Source of the DNA: Candidatus Pacearchaeota archaeon
Lineage (GTDB): Archaea; Nanobdellota; Nanobdellia; Pacearchaeales; GW2011-AR1
Length of the DNA stretch: 64,000 bases
NCBI GenBank assembly: GCA_040879785.1
Contig: JBBDJR010000006.1
Coordinates: 410-64,409, forward strand
Direction of reading: 5' to 3'
Part shown: positions 3,253-40,674 of the stretch, one piece after another
Numbering within the stretch: position 1 is the stretch's first letter
Layout of the letters: each line of letters opens with the position of its first letter
Position numbers and translations under genes: made by a program
The notes under the pieces: model-generated
Database searches by the model: none
Seen by the model: only the letters and a program-made list of their open reading frames with translations
Told to the model about the DNA's origin: nothing

Positions 3253-5706
3253 TTATCCATTCAACCTAAAGATAGTGTCCCCGTTCGCGTCCGTGAAAAT
3301 TCTTGTGTCTCCAACATACAAGTTATCCGTAACGTTCGCATCGCCTTCAACATTTAATTCGTTTTGAGGATTATTTGTTCCGATTCCGAGTCTCCCGGTG
3401 TCATTATCCCAAAAGAAATTAGCGTTATTCTGGGAAATCAAACCTCCAGGTCCTGAAAACAAAACAGAACCCTGAGTCAAAGCAGACAGAGTCAATTGCG
3501 AAAATGTAGGACTGCTCGTTGTGTTAATATCCTGAGGCAAAGAAAGAATCACTCCTCCACTGCCATCATCCGAAACAGAAATCTGATTCGCAGTCCCGTC
3601 AATCCAGGCAACAAGATTAGTATTCTCAACATCATTACTTGAATCCAAAGCCAAAAGCCTTGAAGCACTCAGACCGGGAATCCTTATTTTCCCCGAACTT
3701 TCATTAACAATAAAATTACCCGTAACATTCAAAGCGACCCCGTCCGAATTAGAGCCAGCAATAATCAAACCGCCCGTCATAGTGTCCCCCGCCTTCAAAA
3801 CATACTTGTCAGATAAATTCTCTCCAGACTCAACAAACGAATCCGCGAAAACAGTTCCGGTAACATTAGCATCTCCAATTACATTCAATTCGTGAGAAGG
3901 GTCAACAGTCCCTATTCCAACCACATTCCCATCAGAATCAACAAAAAGAGCATTAGTTCCGATTGTTAAATTTCCATCTACATCAGCACTCCCGGAAACA
4001 CTCGCGTCACCCGAAACACCCAAATCCGTTCCAACATCCAACCTACCAGTAACATTAATATCTCCGTCAGCAAGAAGGTCATTAATATTCAAATTTCCTG
4101 AGATTGTCACCTCGCTTGCCCCCGCATCCTGACTTATTATCGAATCTCCAAGCTCATTCCCGGCAACCCATCTCGGAATAGTATTAAGGGTTCCGGAACC
4201 ATTAACAACATTCTCAGGGTCAACATCAATACAAGTCAAAGTATCGCCAATCTGCTGGACCGCCTGACCCGCAGGACACGCATTAGGATAATTCTGCAAG
4301 AAAGTCCAGTTTATAGGCCCCGAAAACTCTCCCGCATAAACAGTTTGAGTTCCATTTATATCTCCAACAACATTTAACTTATTCTGCGGAGTGACTGTTC
4401 CTATACCCACAAGATTACTATTAGTGTCTGCAAACAGAAGATTGGTTCCAACTGTTAGGTTCTGACCAATCTCAAAATTATTATTGAAAAGATAATCTCC
4501 TGAAACAGTATCTCCTCCTCTCAAAACATAAGTCTGATTTCCAACAGTTTGATTTATCCAATTTAAGTCATTGGTTATCTCACTTCCAAGAATATCCTCT
4601 ACATTCTCTTTGTTTCCCTCATTTGTTCTCCAGAAATTGGAGCTATTTACATCAAGATTTGCCTCATCAGTTATTAACAAATAACGAGTATCTCCTTCCG
4701 TGAAGTTTATCCATGCAAGATCATTTGAAATCCAGCTTCCAAGAAGATCCCCTACATTATCTAAATCACCTTCATCTGTCCTCCACCATTCAGACCTATT
4801 AACATTCAAATCCGGTTCATCAGTCAAAAGAACATATCTACCATCACCATCTGTGAAGTTTATCCAATTTAAGTCATTAACAAACCAACTACCCATTATT
4901 TCAGAAATATTCCTCAATGCACTTCTATCTCCAGTGTTCCAATAATCAGACATATTTACATGAAGATCTCCTTGTCCCTCAGAGATTCTAGAATCAATAG
5001 TACCATTCAAATTAGATTCATTAAAATCTAACTGAGTTCCGTTAAAATCCAAATATAATTGAGAATCAGGACCTACAATCCAGTTGAAAGCTCCAAAAAA
5101 CCAATTTGCAGAAACATTTCCCGTAACATCAACATCTCCAGAGGCATTAATATCCTGAATAAACAAACCTGTAATCCTATTACCTACCTCCCCTAAGAAA
5201 TCAAAAAATCCACTTGAAGCAGAAACATTAAAATCACCAAGAGTCAGATTAGAATCAATATCAATCTCACTCAAATTAACCTGCGTCGCTCTAAAAGAAT
5301 ACGGAACACGACCAAGCTGAGAAACATCTTTTAATTCTCCGTCCCTTGAATAACAAAGATAATACTGTTTATCAAAATTCAGAGCACTCAAATTTCCTCC
5401 GCCCGAACCAACAGTTGGGAGATATAGAGAAACAATTCCTCTGGTGTCCGTTGCCTGAGTTGAAGAATGATTGTAAACAGGATTCTCACAAACAGTTTGA
5501 TTAGAACTCTCAGTTACATTGAATGCAAAATTAAAAGTTCCTGTTACAATATCTCCTGTAGAATCTGTTGTCTGAATATTTATATGAAACGTGTCATTAA
5601 TTTGCGCAGACAATCCTGGAGCTAAAAAAACTAACAAAAACACAATAATAAATAATGTCTTACACTTCACTTGCGCGGGAAAGATATTTAACGACACTTC
5701 TGACAC
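3253..5706 (-). CDS. Secreted surface/adhesin-like protein, paralog of 1..2839
   Basis: 817-aa ORF with an N-terminal hydrophobic signal (KCKTLFIIVFLLVFLAPGLSAQ; an internal GTG at 5670 is a possible start). It has three (V/L)GIGT..P...LNV.GD.N.T motifs and many N-x-S/T sequons. Confidence 0.85.
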   Translation of the reverse strand: MSEVSLNIFPAQVKCKTLFIIVFLLVFLAPGLSAQINDTFHINIQTTDSTGDIVTGTFNFAFNVTESSNQTVCENPVYNHSSTQATDTRGIVSLYLPTVGSGGGNLSALNFDKQYYLCYSRDGELKDVSQLGRVPYSFRATQVNLSEIDIDSNLTLGDFNVSASSGFFDFLGEVGNRITGLFIQDINASGDVDVTGNVSANWFFGAFNWIVGPDSQLYLDFNGTQLDFNESNLNGTIDSRISEGQGDLHVNMSDYWNTGDRSALRNISEIMGSWFVNDLNWINFTDGDGRYVLLTDEPDLNVNRSEWWRTDEGDLDNVGDLLGSWISNDLAWINFTEGDTRYLLITDEANLDVNSSNFWRTNEGNKENVEDILGSEITNDLNWINQTVGNQTYVLRGGDTVSGDYLFNNNFEIGQNLTVGTNLLFADTNSNLVGIGTVTPQNKLNVVGDINGTQTVYAGEFSGPINWTFLQNYPNACPAGQAVQQIGDTLTCIDVDPENVVNGSGTLNTIPRWVAGNELGDSIISQDAGASEVTISGNLNINDLLADGDINVTGRLDVGTDLGVSGDASVSGSADVDGNLTIGTNALFVDSDGNVVGIGTVDPSHELNVIGDANVTGTVFADSFVESGENLSDKYVLKAGDTMTGGLIIAGSNSDGVALNVTGNFIVNESSGKIRIPGLSASRLLALDSSNDVENTNLVAWIDGTANQISVSDDGSGGVILSLPQDINTTSSPTFSQLTLSALTQGSVLFSGPGGLISQNNANFFWDNDTGRLGIGTNNPQNELNVEGDANVTDNLYVGDTRIFTDANGDTIFRLNG
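4510..4959 (-). repeat. Three tandem ~50-codon repeats inside the adhesin CDS
   Basis: Residues ~250-399 read W(R/N)T..G........(I/L)(M/L)GS(W/E)..NDL.WIN(F/Q)T.G...Y.L three times. Confidence 0.8.
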
Positions 5707-6685: not shown

Positions 6686-6836
6686 GAGCCTGTAGCTCAG
6701 TCTGGTCAGAGCGCTGGTCTTATAAGAATACAACCCGTAAGGATTGTAATCTCTTGGAAATCAAAATTTGTCCTGGTCGCAGGTGGTTTTCATCTAAGAG
6801 AGCCAGAGGTCCTCGGTTCAAATCCGGGCAGGCTCA
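6686..6836 (+). tRNA. tRNA-Ile (anticodon TAT) with 76-nt intron (6725-6800)
   Basis: Hand-folded: acceptor GAGCCTG/CAGGCTC, D arm GCTC..GAGC, anticodon stem CTGGT/GCCAG, loop CTTATA|A, T arm CTCGG-TTCAAAT-CCGGG, discriminator A. No CCA is encoded. Confidence 0.8.
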
Positions 6837-8276: not shown

Positions 8277-8394
8277 GCCCCGATAGTTCAGAGGCCAAGA
8301 ATGCGGCCCTTTCAAATAGCAACGCTTTGACGTTTGATTCAAAGTGAAGCTTTGAAGCACGGCCGTGACCCGGGTTCGAATCCCGGTCGGGGCG
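8277..8394 (+). tRNA. tRNA-Glu (anticodon TTC) with 45-nt intron (8315-8359)
   Basis: Acceptor GCCCCGA/TCGGGGC, D arm GTTC..GAAT, anticodon stem CGGCC/GGCCG, loop CTTTCA, T arm CCGGG-TTCGAAT-CCCGG. Confidence 0.9.
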
Positions 8395-36274: not shown

Positions 36275-36391
36275 AGCCTGTGCTGGGAGTTGAACCCAGG
36301 ACCTCGTCATTTTTGGATTTCTTTAAGTACCGAACTTTTCTAAAGCTAGGCATACCAATGACGCGCTCTACCTAATCTGAGCTACACAGGC
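36275..36391 (-). tRNA. tRNA-Thr (anticodon GGT) with 42-nt intron (36311-36352)
   Basis: Acceptor GCCTGTG/CACAGGC, D arm GCTC..GAGC, anticodon stem CGTCA/TGACG, loop TTGGTA|A, T arm CTGGG-TTCAACT-CCCAG, discriminator T. Confidence 0.85.
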
Positions 36392-37891: not shown

Positions 37892-38344
37892 CTAAAAGAA
37901 GAACAGATACCTCAAGATTAAAAGCAGAATGAAAATCCCAAACACGACGTCTATTGTTTTCTCAGTTTTTCCTCCAAAAGTTATGAATCCTTTTGTTCTT
38001 GCTTTAAGTGGCCAGAAAGGACTTATTCCTTCAACGGTAAGACTGTCAAGAAACAAATGGAAAGAATATCCTAAGAAGAAAGGGAATGCAAGAATTGGAT
38101 AGAAAAAGGCCAGAAGAATTGAAATAAGAACACATAGAGTATAGCTGTGCATGAAATCCTTAGATATCTTAGACTTAATCGTTTTAATAGTGTTGTATTT
38201 ATTCCTTGAAGAAATAAAAGAATCGAGATCAGGAATAAGACTCGCAAGGAGAACTACCGGGAAAAACACAACTTTATAATTTACATAAGGTAGAAAATAA
38301 AGAGCTATAAAAATTCCTATTATAAAATGAGTTTTTTTAAGCAT
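37892..38344 (-). CDS. Membrane-bound metal-dependent hydrolase, YdjM/DUF457-like
   Basis: THFIIG..., SLIPDLDS, and HLFLDSLTVEGISPFWPL motifs. Confidence 0.7.
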   Translation of the reverse strand: MLKKTHFIIGIFIALYFLPYVNYKVVFFPVVLLASLIPDLDSFISSRNKYNTIKTIKSKISKDFMHSYTLCVLISILLAFFYPILAFPFFLGYSFHLFLDSLTVEGISPFWPLKARTKGFITFGGKTEKTIDVVFGIFILLLILRYLFFF

Positions 38345-38421
38345 GATTCAATAAAAAAACCATCAAATTTAAATCTATCCTTTAGAAATATTTTAATACT
38401 CTAATCACAGAACTCTTTAGA

Positions 38422-38447
38422 AGCCCCATAGTACAGTGGTCAAGTAG
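38422..38447 (+). pseudogene. Promoter-proximal 5' fragment of a tRNA-Gln gene
   Basis: AGCCCCATAGTACAGTGGTCAAGTAG matches 39391-39416 at 19 of 26 positions, with compensatory D-stem differences. No downstream tRNA body follows it. Confidence 0.65.
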
Positions 38448-39390
38448 TAAGATATATAAATGTATTTTTCTTTAATTATTTATGAGACTGAAATTAAAAA
38501 AGGGAAAACAAAGAGAACTAATAAAAGAATTTAAGGATGAAAAAAGATTAACATGGATTAATCTAGCAGACCTTCTTGGGATAAAATATGGTAGGCTAAA
38601 AGCATATGTTGATGAGACATCCTTAATTCCAAAAAGTTTTTATGAAAAACTTGATACAAAAAAGAAATTTTCAAAATATATAATTGAAGAGATGGTAGAG
38701 GGTTGGGGGAAGATAAAGGGAGGCAAAAATTCGGGAGGAAGTACTAAAGATATTAGTTTTCCAAGAGAATCAGGAAGTTTAGCAGAATTTTTTGGTATAA
38801 TGCTTGGTGACGGCAATTCGCATAAAACAGCATTTTATAATTCTAGAAAAGATAAAAGAGGAACCTATATGATAAGAATAGTTGGTGATTCAAGATATGA
38901 TAAAGACTATCTAATAAAATATGTAAAGCCATTGATTAGAAAGTTGTTTAACATAAATGTTCGTTCAGGCAAATTTAAGAAACAAAATGCTATTTATATT
39001 GAAGCACACAGTCGTCAACTAATAGAATTTTTAGAAGCAAAAGAATTTAAGCCAGGGAATAAAATAAAGAATAAATTGACAATTCCTGGATGGATACTTA
39101 ACGAAGAAACTTATCTGAAACACTGCCTTAGAGGTCTTATAGACACTGATGGGAGTATCCATAAAATGTCTAACAAGGATCCAAAATTAATTAGAATAAG
39201 TTTTAAGAATCATAATAAAACACTTCTTAAGAATACTAAGGAAGCATTTATCCAAATTGGATTCAATCCGTCAAAGATAATATTGAACAATGTTTTTTAC
39301 ATATCAAGACAGAGTGAAATAAAGAAATATTTAAAAGAGATTGGATTCTCCAACAATAGACATAAGGAAAGGTTAAAAGCTCTTAGAAAA
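38448..39390 (+). mobile_element. Insertion block carrying a LAGLIDADG endonuclease gene between the tRNA-Gln fragment and the intact tRNA-Gln
   Basis: Bounded by the imperfect 22-26-nt tRNA-derived direct repeat. Contains its own A/T box (ATATATAAA) ~25 nt before ATG 38482. Confidence 0.55.
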
Positions 39391-39405
39391 AGCCCCATCG
39401 TCTAG
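38482..39405 (+). CDS. Double-motif LAGLIDADG homing endonuclease with N-terminal HTH-like extension
   Basis: LAEFFGIMLGDGNS and LRGLIDTDGSI motifs ~115 aa apart. The stop codon TAG (39403-39405) lies inside the tRNA-Gln D arm. Confidence 0.85.
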   Translation: MRLKLKKGKQRELIKEFKDEKRLTWINLADLLGIKYGRLKAYVDETSLIPKSFYEKLDTKKKFSKYIIEEMVEGWGKIKGGKNSGGSTKDISFPRESGSLAEFFGIMLGDGNSHKTAFYNSRKDKRGTYMIRIVGDSRYDKDYLIKYVKPLIRKLFNINVRSGKFKKQNAIYIEAHSRQLIEFLEAKEFKPGNKIKNKLTIPGWILNEETYLKHCLRGLIDTDGSIHKMSNKDPKLIRISFKNHNKTLLKNTKEAFIQIGFNPSKIILNNVFYISRQSEIKKYLKEIGFSNNRHKERLKALRKSPIV

Positions 39406-39463
39406 CGGTCAAAGATCTGGCCCTCTGGAGGCTAGGACCCAGGTTCGAATCCTGGTGGGGCTA
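39391..39463 (+). tRNA. tRNA-Gln (anticodon CTG), no intron
   Basis: Acceptor AGCCCCA/TGGGGCT (A1-U72), D arm GTCT..AGAT, anticodon stem TGGCC/GGCTA, loop CTCTGGA, T arm CCAGG-TTCGAAT-CCTGG. Confidence 0.85.
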
Positions 39464-39510
39464 TTCTCCTATTCCCCAAAGTTTAAATATCCCTTATTCC
39501 TAGATAAGAT

Positions 39511-39774
39511 ATGGCGGAAAAAGCTGAAGAAGCCAAAAAAATCGGGACGGTGTCGGGATACTTTAGCCATGTCGGAGTGGCTGCCATAAAGCTTTCAAAC
39601 AACCTTAAAGTTGGAGACAAAATCCACATAAAAGGACACACGACCGACTTTGAAACTCAGATAAAAGATATGCAAATCAATAGAAAGGATGTCAAGGAAG
39701 CAAAGAAAGGAGATCATATAGGAATAAAAGTTCCGGATAAAGTAAGGCCCAACGATGATGTTTTTCTGGTTTAA
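39511..39774 (+). CDS. Small EF-Tu domain-2-like beta-barrel protein
   Basis: IGTVSGYFSHVGVAAIKLSNNLKVGDKIHIKG...AKKGDHIGIKV pattern; 87 aa. Confidence 0.5.
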   Translation: MAEKAEEAKKIGTVSGYFSHVGVAAIKLSNNLKVGDKIHIKGHTTDFETQIKDMQINRKDVKEAKKGDHIGIKVPDKVRPNDDVFLV

Positions 39775-39868
39775 TAAATCCTTCTGGACTAATTAAAAAT
39801 TACTCTACTAATAATCATATTAAGCAATCTTTAAAAACAAAATTCTCTCTTAATCTTTAGTTTTGTTT

Positions 39869-40024
39869 GCCCTGATTTTACTAAGCCAGGGCAGATTGGA
39901 TGAATGCAAGGTACAAGCCCTTGGCCGACGTCGCTATGGCGGTCTAGGGTGAACGAAGCGTAGCGAAGTGAGCCCTGATTTAGCCACGCTTGGACGAAGC
40001 AGGGTGAGCGAACGAAGTGAGTGA
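39869..40024 (+). other. Three GC-rich hairpin modules plus linkers forming the tRNA-Glu(CUC) leader
   Basis: M1 39869-39892 (GCCCTG..CAGGGC), M2 39917-39950 (GCCCT..AGGGT), M3 39972-40005 (GCCCTG..CAGGGT). Linkers are GAACGAAGCGTAGCGAAGTG and GAGCGAACGAAGTGAGTGA. Confidence 0.6.
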
Positions 40025-40142
40025 GCCCCCGTAGTTCAGAGGCCAAGAATGCGGCCCTCTCAAATGGCAAAGCTTTGACGTTTGATTCAAAGTGAAGCTT
40101 TGAAGTACGGCCGTGACCCGAGTTCGAATCTCGGCGGGGGCG
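40025..40142 (+). tRNA. tRNA-Glu (anticodon CTC) with 45-nt intron (40063-40107)
   Basis: Acceptor GCCCCCG/CGGGGGC, the same D and anticodon arms as the 8277 copy, loop CTCTCA, T arm CCGAG-TTCGAAT-CTCGG. Confidence 0.9.
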
Positions 40143-40227
40143 TCCAAACCCTCAAAAAACCAATTTTGACTTTTATCACTAAACAAAGTACACAATGATT
40201 TATATATAAAAAAGCCTTATTCTAAAC

Positions 40228-40674
40228 ATGGTCAGCGTCGGAAATCTCAAAAGAGAGCACGAAGAAATCTTCAGAAGCTTGCTGGACTTTGAAGAAGAAA
40301 TAAACAACGGCGAAAAAGACCCTCTGAAACTAAGCTATCATTTAAATAAAACAATTGACCTGATTCTGTATCACAACCAAAACCACAAATCATTTCTAGA
40401 AGATTTTGATGGCGAAGAGGCAAACAACATAAAAAACCAGATTAACAAATCAAGAATAAACCCAAGGGAAATAAGAGGGCACATCTTTGTCATAAGCAAA
40501 GCAATTAGTTCAAATAACGGCGGAATAAAAACAGCTCTTGAAAACGATGGAAGGATGTTCATATCAAAAGTAAAAGAGCACATACTCAACGAAGAGATGA
40601 TTCTTGATAAAATGCTTTTCTTAGGAGTTCTCCAGAGCCAGGAAAACAGAAACAAAATTGAAGAAATACACTAA
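40228..40674 (+). CDS. Hypothetical protein (possibly hemerythrin-like helical bundle)
   Basis: 148-aa ORF. LKREHEEIFRSLLDFEEEI resembles hemerythrin/HHE starts only weakly. Confidence 0.5.
   Translation: MVSVGNLKREHEEIFRSLLDFEEEINNGEKDPLKLSYHLNKTIDLILYHNQNHKSFLEDFDGEEANNIKNQINKSRINPREIRGHIFVISKAISSNNGGIKTALENDGRMFISKVKEHILNEEMILDKMLFLGVLQSQENRNKIEEIH

Follow-up and report, generated by a model that had tools for sequence, protein, structure and literature searches.

Free-standing phage endonucleases of the T4 Seg and Mob type, which belong to the GIY-YIG or HNH families, lie between genes and home without an intron: the cut allele receives the endonuclease gene and its flanking markers by co-conversion, and no part of the target gene is duplicated or displaced. 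In phage homing endonucleases, sequence differences at the cut site shield the donor allele. In fungal mitochondria, the elements known as mORFs carry a replacement end of the gene that they occupy, as described for atp6 of Allomyces macrogynus and for atp6, atp9, cox2 and nad3 of Glomus sp. (PMC3630166). In archaea, an integrase-borne insertion has been described in the tRNA-Thr(GGU) gene of Caldiarchaeum subterraneum (Sugahara et al., 2012, PMC3293823), the LAGLIDADG endonucleases I-DmoI and I-Tsp061I reside inside spliced bulge-helix-bulge introns, and all 39 group I introns reported in a survey are located in rRNA genes (PMC6125680). Disrupted tRNA genes have also been proposed to resist mobile elements, an idea that PMC4390854 attributes to Randau and Söll. 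Here, we analyze a 64-kb stretch of a Candidatus Pacearchaeota genome (hereafter the window), in which the open reading frame (ORF) of a LAGLIDADG endonuclease lies between a 5′ fragment of a tRNA-Gln gene and a complete tRNA-Gln(CUG) gene. We consider it probable that this ORF belongs to a selfish homing-endonuclease cassette of DPANN tRNA-Gln genes, which spares the tRNA by replacing its 5′ end and not by splicing. Full-text literature searches retrieved no description of a LAGLIDADG element in an archaeal tRNA gene.

In our reconstruction of the locus, the elements follow each other in the order native promoter, displaced tRNA nucleotides 1-25, cassette TATA box, ORF, and a tRNA gene composed of replacement nucleotides 1-25 and native nucleotides 26-73 (Table 1). 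Positions 38422-38447 and 39391-39416 are identical at 19 of 26 bases, as an earlier note on this DNA, made from its letters alone, had reported, and this is the sole match of at least 17/26 in the window, both strands considered; none of the other four real tRNAs reaches that level. Chance similarity was rejected, since the match is unique in the window and the D-loop motif of the fragment (AGYRGYCAA in the family described below) has 0 matches in 55 kb of ORF bodies. The fragment contains the acceptor strand, the D stem, the D loop and most of the 3′ strand of the D stem. It shares 25 of 26 bases with the commonest endonuclease-free tRNA-Gln allele of metagenomes (AGCCCCATAGTACAGYGGTCAAGTAT), being thus nearer to ORF-less relatives than to the tRNA with which it is linked, and its start corresponds to the tRNA start position in syntenic empty loci. 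The naive tRNA-Gln(CUG) gene contains …TAGTACAGYGGTCAAGTATAYSGSCC…, and the naive allele reads AGCCCCATAGTACAGYGGTCAAGTATAYSGSCC…. The fragment equals an endonuclease-free allele, and therefore an insertion into such an allele is indicated; judged from these sequence comparisons, it is the displaced native 5′ end of the tRNA-Gln gene. The differences between its D stem and the GTCT/AGAT stem of the complete tRNA had been interpreted in the earlier note as compensatory and as the mark of a once-functional allele. This is weakened by the fragment itself (GTAC..GTA(g)), in which only three of the four pairs are formed; what matters more is that the fragment matches the widespread endonuclease-free GTAC..GTAT allele (the D stem of that allele, GTAC/GTAT, is found in 37/73 intron-less endonuclease-free tRNA-Gln genes). 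The first ~25 nt of the complete tRNA are then those brought by the cassette, nucleotides 26-73 being native. The two copies of the tRNA 5′ end are 969 nt apart; the cassette boundaries can slide within this repeat, and the left junction was placed where the identity to the endonuclease-free allele stops.

The A/T-rich box upstream of the fragment is presumed to be the original promoter of the tRNA gene, and the syntenic endonuclease-free loci L093 and L152 display a similar A/T box at an equal distance before an intact tRNA-Gln. The ORF has its own A/T box and a TAG stop codon within the D arm, as read previously, and the spacing of the cassette TATA box to the ATG implies a leaderless mRNA, given archaeal promoter spacing. 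T-rich sequence is frequent across the family at the position of the T5 run, where it could terminate transcripts begun at the old tRNA promoter.

By analogy, the closest mechanism would be that of the fungal mitochondrial mORFs, mirrored to the 5′ end of an RNA gene. As in these elements, where the ORF is of LAGLIDADG or GIY-YIG type, the host gene contains neither an intron nor an intein, the diverged gene end carried by the insert appears to be the expressed one, and the displaced native end persists alongside, nearer to ORF-less relatives than the inserted copy (PMC3630166). Unlike mORFs, which replace the 3′ (C-terminal) end of mitochondrial protein genes, the present cassette replaces the 5′ end of a tRNA gene on an archaeal chromosome. 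It would also differ in supplying a promoter for both the endonuclease and the tRNA, and in protecting the rebuilt gene by RNA-level solutions, namely compensatory stem swaps and a spliceable mini-intron.

Even by itself, the tRNA downstream of the ORF forms a complete gene, being recovered by ARAGORN and by the Rfam tRNA model (53.8 bits), and a TATA box and a T5 run separate the fragment from the ORF. Both observations argue against a giant intron or an alternative 5′ exon, in which the fragment would be joined to the tRNA body by the splicing endonuclease or by a group I ribozyme, the ORF being intronic. Although archaeal rRNA introns carry LAGLIDADG genes, and the intron enzymes I-DmoI and I-Tsp061I are the best fold matches of the protein, the duplex between the fragment and the ORF end (-18.7 kcal/mol) does not exceed that of shuffled sequence (-16.7±3.5 kcal/mol, with 85/300 shuffles as good). 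A giant bulge-helix-bulge intron was rejected on this lack of junction complementarity and on the completeness of the downstream tRNA, and no group I intron, other ribozyme or further Rfam family spanning the region was matched at the gathering threshold, nor at E≤1 in 38000-40600. In 31/50 loci, in addition, the fragment has a degenerate acceptor strand, including that of a paralogue in the window genome. In the mini-intron loci discussed below, the central 4-bp helix uses the exon sequence GGUC, which is also present in the upstream fragment, so that a distal exon is possible there; overall, we regard this explanation as very unlikely. The conclusion of the earlier note that the locus is not a simple intron is therefore retained, as there is neither bulge-helix-bulge pairing nor a group I intron, but its argument from incompatible D stems is invalid because the D stem of the fragment has both its strands within the fragment.

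Table 1. Coordinates of the features discussed in the text; positions are those of the window except in the last row, where they are those of the named loci.
Feature	Position	Strand	Remarks
TATA-like A/T-rich box	38387..38399	+	~29 nt upstream of the fragment; read from sequence
Displaced native tRNA-Gln 5′ end (predicted), 25-26 nt (AGCCCCATAGTACAGTGGTCAAGTAg)	38422..38446 or 38447	+	
Inserted cassette (predicted), approximate extent 969 bp	38447..39415	+	Promoter, endonuclease gene, replacement tRNA 5′ end
Cassette TATA box (ATATATAAAT)	38452..38461	+	Centre ~26 nt before ATG
T5 run	38465-38469		Between cassette TATA box and ATG
LAGLIDADG endonuclease gene, 307 aa, single-chain, two-motif	38482..39405	+	ATG at 38482
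LAGLIDADG motif 1 (LAEFFGIMLGDGN)	38779..38817	+	Residues 100-112; G109, D110, G111 invariant in 25 homologues
LAGLIDADG motif 2 (LRGLIDTDGS)	39127..39156	+	Residues 216-225; D221, T222, D223, G224 invariant in 25 homologues
tRNA-Gln(CUG), complete, functional-looking	39391..39463	+	ARAGORN; Rfam tRNA model, 53.8 bits
TAG stop codon of endonuclease gene	39403..39405	+	tRNA nucleotides 13-15, D arm
Intron-containing tRNA (intron ~45-80 nt)	6686-6836	+	Rfam model
Intron-containing tRNA (intron ~45-80 nt)	8277-8394	+	Rfam model
Intron-containing tRNA (intron ~45-80 nt)	36275-36391	-	Rfam model
tRNA-Glu(CUC), 47-nt intron	40025-40142	+	Rfam model
Mini-intron examples	L001 3910-3945; L005 3929-3964; L007 1170-1205		Plus about 20 further loci

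The assignment of the ORF to the LAGLIDADG family, previously made from its two motifs, is confirmed by the Pfam LAGLIDADG_3 profile, which matches its C-terminal half above the family cut-off (E=1.1e-8). In an alignment of 25 homologues, the metal-binding acidic residues D110 and D223 and the flanking glycines are invariant. The protein is 100% identical to a Candidatus Pacearchaeota record, from a metagenome-assembled genome (MAG), that is named LAGLIDADG endonuclease, and has about 1000 relatives at 45-70% identity. A sequence-only search of the PDB recovered weak intein matches alone (E about 0.01). The AlphaFold model (pLDDT 87) retrieved 132 PDB matches at E≤1e-3 with Foldseek, of which the best 50 are LAGLIDADG-family proteins, led by the single-chain enzymes I-AniI, I-DmoI (template modelling [TM] score 0.72), the archaeal intron enzyme I-Tsp061I (TM 0.74) and PI-PfuI. 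The model thus predicts the pseudo-dimeric alpha-beta-beta-alpha-beta-beta-alpha LAGLIDADG fold. I-DmoI and I-Tsp061I resemble it over about 200 residues (TM 0.72-0.74) and are likewise single-chain, two-motif archaeal enzymes with a stable-RNA gene as target. They differ from it in their intronic location, in a sequence identity of about 18%, and in lacking its extra small helical N-terminal domain (residues about 1-72), which may be an added DNA-binding module.

Far from being a singular event, the arrangement represents a large conserved family in DPANN archaea. Relatives were sought in one genome per species, giving 423 loci, 80 of which were retrieved and examined; all retrieved loci come from DPANN-type MAGs, though some bear other labels. 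In nearly all examined loci, the tRNA begins 2-15 nt before the end of the ORF. Once the ARAGORN mis-calls of intron-bearing genes were corrected, the linked tRNAs were Gln(CUG) or Gln(UUG), with Glu(CUC) in a few cases. Upstream of the start codon, the D-loop motif is present at -70..-25 in 50/72 loci and a TATA-like box at -38..-18 in 56/72, with the consensus …TAGTnnAGYGGTCAA-ACAATA-AATTTATAWA, ~22 nt, ATGAGA. The acceptor strand is still in register in 19 of the 50 motif-bearing loci; in the other 31, the acceptor part of the fragment has decayed and the D-loop part (AGYGGTCAA) is kept next to the TATA box, at -60..-35 from the ATG. The retained D-loop part seems to be under constraint, which might reflect a promoter element, a putative binding site of the endonuclease or a homology arm. 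In a comparison with locus L082, the first 40 nt (fragment plus TATA box) are identical to those of the window at 38/40 positions and the tRNA itself at 93%, while the endonucleases are 70% identical, their third codon positions 51%, and the flanks cannot be aligned. Two explanations fit this conservation, which could be refreshed by repeated homing into naive alleles or be due to constraint, the latter possibly stemming from a role of the fragment as homology arm, promoter part or operator.

Some loci depart from this layout. In one subfamily (L017, L055 and L059), the tRNA fragment is ~150 nt upstream. A perfect hairpin (TTAATCACCCA…TGGGTGATTAA), at ~40 nt before the ATG, stands right before the start codon in these loci and takes the place of the usual TATA spacing. 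In L077 (about 1238-1271), tRNA nucleotides 1-25, which make up the fragment, are immediately adjacent to the ATG, and no TATA box intervenes; expression of this copy would require the promoter of the tRNA itself, and the fragment would serve as leader.

A tRNA end that is directly repeated at both borders, as observed here, is a hallmark of integrase-type elements (pNOB8 or SSV type), and the insert could be viewed as a remnant of such an element in the 5′ part of a tRNA gene, with the LAGLIDADG gene as passive cargo. The Caldiarchaeum insert at tRNA-Thr offers the closest archaeal analogy, as it presents the same succession of 5′ tRNA fragment, mobile DNA and complete tRNA, and as the element brought an extra D-arm-side intron (24/25), for which the authors proposed a block on further invasion (PMC3293823). 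That insert is, however, 1.8 kb long, encodes a DNA recombinase and is known from one population, whereas the insert studied here contains a LAGLIDADG gene only and belongs to a family spread across hundreds of DPANN genomes. In the 969 bp of the window, the LAGLIDADG gene is the only + strand ORF of at least 60 aa between the repeats, and about 80 independent loci contain the same one-gene insert of ~0.97 kb, none having an integrase between its repeats. Because the insert has no integrase or recombinase gene, the integrase-type origin was rejected and appears to be extremely unlikely. The recombinase implies att-site recombination in Caldiarchaeum, and the sole LAGLIDADG gene would imply a double-strand break and repair here.

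Alleles without the insert are common. Metagenomes were scanned with the T arm and acceptor of the window tRNA, which recovered 120 loci, 101 of them with enough upstream sequence to be scored. The endonuclease is absent in 95 of these 101 tRNA-Gln loci sharing the T arm, 6 being scored as occupied. L152 was rejected as an occupied locus, as its tblastn match is weak (E=0.001) and covers the tRNA 5′ end itself; the site is empty. The window locus is flanked upstream, on the opposite strand, by a YdjM-family membrane protein and downstream by an 87-aa protein. Loci with these flanking genes include both empty (L093, L152, L167/L095 and L097) and occupied ones (L033, L034 and L044). The arrangement is conserved and, at the same time, accompanied by abundant insert-free alleles and signs of gain and loss, which speaks against the refuting condition set in the earlier note, an identical arrangement with no such alleles and no evidence of mobility. 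The proposal of that note, in which the inserted endonuclease pushed aside the original 5′ end and brought a substitute for it, is supported by the identity of the fragment to the free allele, by the syntenic empty sites and by the recurrence in about 80 loci. Three empty loci (L097, L123 and L134) display a 14-15-nt duplicate of their own 5′ end, 54, 59 and 141 nt upstream, respectively, and these short duplicates are possible footprints of lost cassettes. In addition, L132 (about 1233-1306) and L127 are endonuclease-free tRNA-Gln genes with the D arm GTCT..AGAT, the type linked to the endonuclease in the window, and the nearest homologue of the 87-aa protein encoded downstream is also in L132 (78% identity). 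These two genes may be resistant alleles that remained after cassette loss, or that arose by gene conversion without the ORF.

The tRNA genes linked to the endonuclease differ from the free ones in their D arm. Because the free sample was collected from metagenomes by T-arm pattern and the linked one from genomes by protein, and because both are phylogenetically non-independent, the following Fisher p-values are optimistic: the GTAC/GTAT D stem is found, for the same T arm, in 0/13 linked vs 37/73 free tRNAs (p=4e-4), an extra D-loop base (AGTTGG) in 12/69 linked vs 0/95 free (p=2e-5), and an insert of 20-45 nt exactly after GGTCAA (position 21/22) in 23/69 linked vs 1/95 free (p=3e-9), or 4/13 linked vs 1/95 free within the same T-arm class (p=6e-4). 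This insert, located at the cassette junction, is about 30-fold enriched in occupied genes. It folds, together with the D stem, into a 4-bp helix (exon GGUC/intron GACU), a 3-4-nt bulge and a hairpin, with compensatory changes in 5/12 pairs, and we therefore interpret this covarying helix-bulge-helix as a relaxed bulge-helix-bulge intron, here called mini-intron. L033, L045 and L061 were rejected as D-arm-intron loci, since they present a variant D loop only, and are outside the mini-intron counts. The sole free gene with an insert, in L203, shares its allele type with the linked gene of L008 and may descend from a cassette loss. An origin of the whole cassette from an ORF-bearing intron at 21/22 was also discarded, as the sequence following the fragment (ACAATAAATTTATA) is unlike the 5′ part of the mini-intron (ATCTTTGTG).

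Through the three types of D-arm change, the rebuilt gene would probably lose the target of the endonuclease and still yield a functional tRNA. A further step, that these linked-only changes (stem swaps, extra base and, foremost, the 21/22 mini-intron) are a selected immunity travelling with the cassette, is put forward tentatively, at slightly less than even chances. The tRNA 5′ ends of L003 and L004 (about 3906-3935) have the D stems GGAT/ATCT and AGAT/ATCT, of which the 3′ strand corresponds to the first four bases of the mini-intron of sister loci. It looks as if the intron had been deleted in these loci and the 5′ strand had then changed to pair with the remainder.

We propose the following cycle for the cassette. 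A single RNA transcribed from its promoter would contain both the endonuclease mRNA and the tRNA, and RNase P would free the tRNA from it; from the coordinates, the RNase P cut at 39391 would take away the stop codon of the endonuclease gene, and this cut and the expression of the endonuclease may be mutually exclusive, as the earlier note had suggested. Such a co-transcription would leave the host unable to silence the endonuclease without losing tRNA-Gln(CUG). A naive, uninterrupted tRNA-Gln gene would be the target of the protein, which would recognize ~20 bp around positions 21-26 of the tRNA and produce a double-strand break. In the repair from the occupied allele, homology would be provided on the left by the fragment (nucleotides 1-25) and on the right by the tRNA body; this repair would copy the cassette in and strand the recipient's own 5′ end upstream. 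With its replacement 5′ end and altered D arm, the rebuilt gene would no longer be a target; the immunity change would be the GTCT/AGAT stem in the window, and an extra D-loop base or the 21/22 bulge-helix-bulge intron in other lineages. Later decay of the cassette, or its loss via recombination between the two direct repeats, would leave footprints or resistant alleles. Intron-less homing combined with a donor site protected by its sequence, as proposed here, recalls the T4 Seg and Mob endonucleases.

Not all the comparative data speak for a selfish element. Within the window's own genome, a second endonuclease, 52% identical to the first, precedes tRNA-Gln(UUG) (L081 2941-4003), its fragment having a decayed acceptor part, and thus each of the two glutamine isoacceptor genes of this organism carries a copy. 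Of the ORFs examined (81), 68 are intact; in-frame stops or frameshifts affect 6 and N-terminal truncation 3, and about 12% count as decayed. In a neighbour-joining tree of 70 intact proteins, the CUG-, UUG- and Glu-associated clades are separate, with mini-introns scattered through all of them. This match between clade and isoacceptor fits a recognition site reaching into the anticodon stem-loop. The occupation of both genes, the many intact ORFs and the match with the isoacceptor would also fit a domesticated, vertically inherited host factor, a regulator or an RNA-processing helper of tRNA-Gln, which would be co-transcribed and no longer mobile. The family is indeed very widespread and well conserved (the above-mentioned relatives at 45-70% identity), and some LAGLIDADG proteins are maturases, bI3 and I-AniI being among the fold matches. 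Nevertheless, most tRNA-Gln genes of the same type are without the endonuclease, syntenic loci included, and decayed copies and footprints exist. The metal-binding Asp is invariant in both motifs, as expected of an active nuclease, and the equality of the displaced fragment with the endonuclease-free allele indicates an insertion. Domestication also gives no rationale for a D-arm remodelling specific to linked tRNAs. Therefore, we consider domestication unlikely and favour the selfish cassette.

Besides the different origin of the free and linked samples, several points weigh against the selfish cassette. The 84% of intact ORFs, together with the occupation of both isoacceptor genes, would also fit a benefit to the host, and the endonuclease tree tracking the isoacceptor could also result from long vertical co-inheritance. 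A neutral decay of the remnant does not explain why the D-loop part of the fragment is kept without the acceptor part. Moreover, exact look-up of the flanking proteins did not find occupied and empty alleles within a single population: the 87-aa protein had no match, and the 150-aa flanking protein matched only the same occupied locus, in sample SRR27977663.

With the selfish cassette as preferred reading, gene-end replacement would represent a third way, besides introns and inteins, in which the gene occupied by a homing endonuclease is spared; known from fungal mitochondrial protein genes, it would here extend to archaeal tRNA genes, across at least 423 DPANN genomes at the species level. 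The mini-intron at the junction bears on the old proposal that archaeal tRNA introns at odd positions protect against mobile elements or are delivered by them. If true, this would be a widespread natural system in which tRNA-targeting mobile endonucleases deliver and maintain non-canonical archaeal tRNA introns, and in which a selfish gene is made unsilenceable by forming the promoter-proximal part of an essential tRNA transcript. The relatives would also constitute a pool of about 1000 predicted natural meganucleases, for which the comparative data point to a putative ~20-bp target in the D arm and anticodon stem of tRNA-Gln. At a practical level, tRNA finders mis-name such genes (with ARAGORN, many were assigned to Ser, Thr or Leu), and the displaced fragments will escape genome annotation.

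Finally, the window contains four more intron-bearing tRNA genes (Table 1), which the Rfam model finds and a default run of ARAGORN misses. One of them, the tRNA-Glu, is a neighbour of tRNA-Gln in several related loci too, as in the window.

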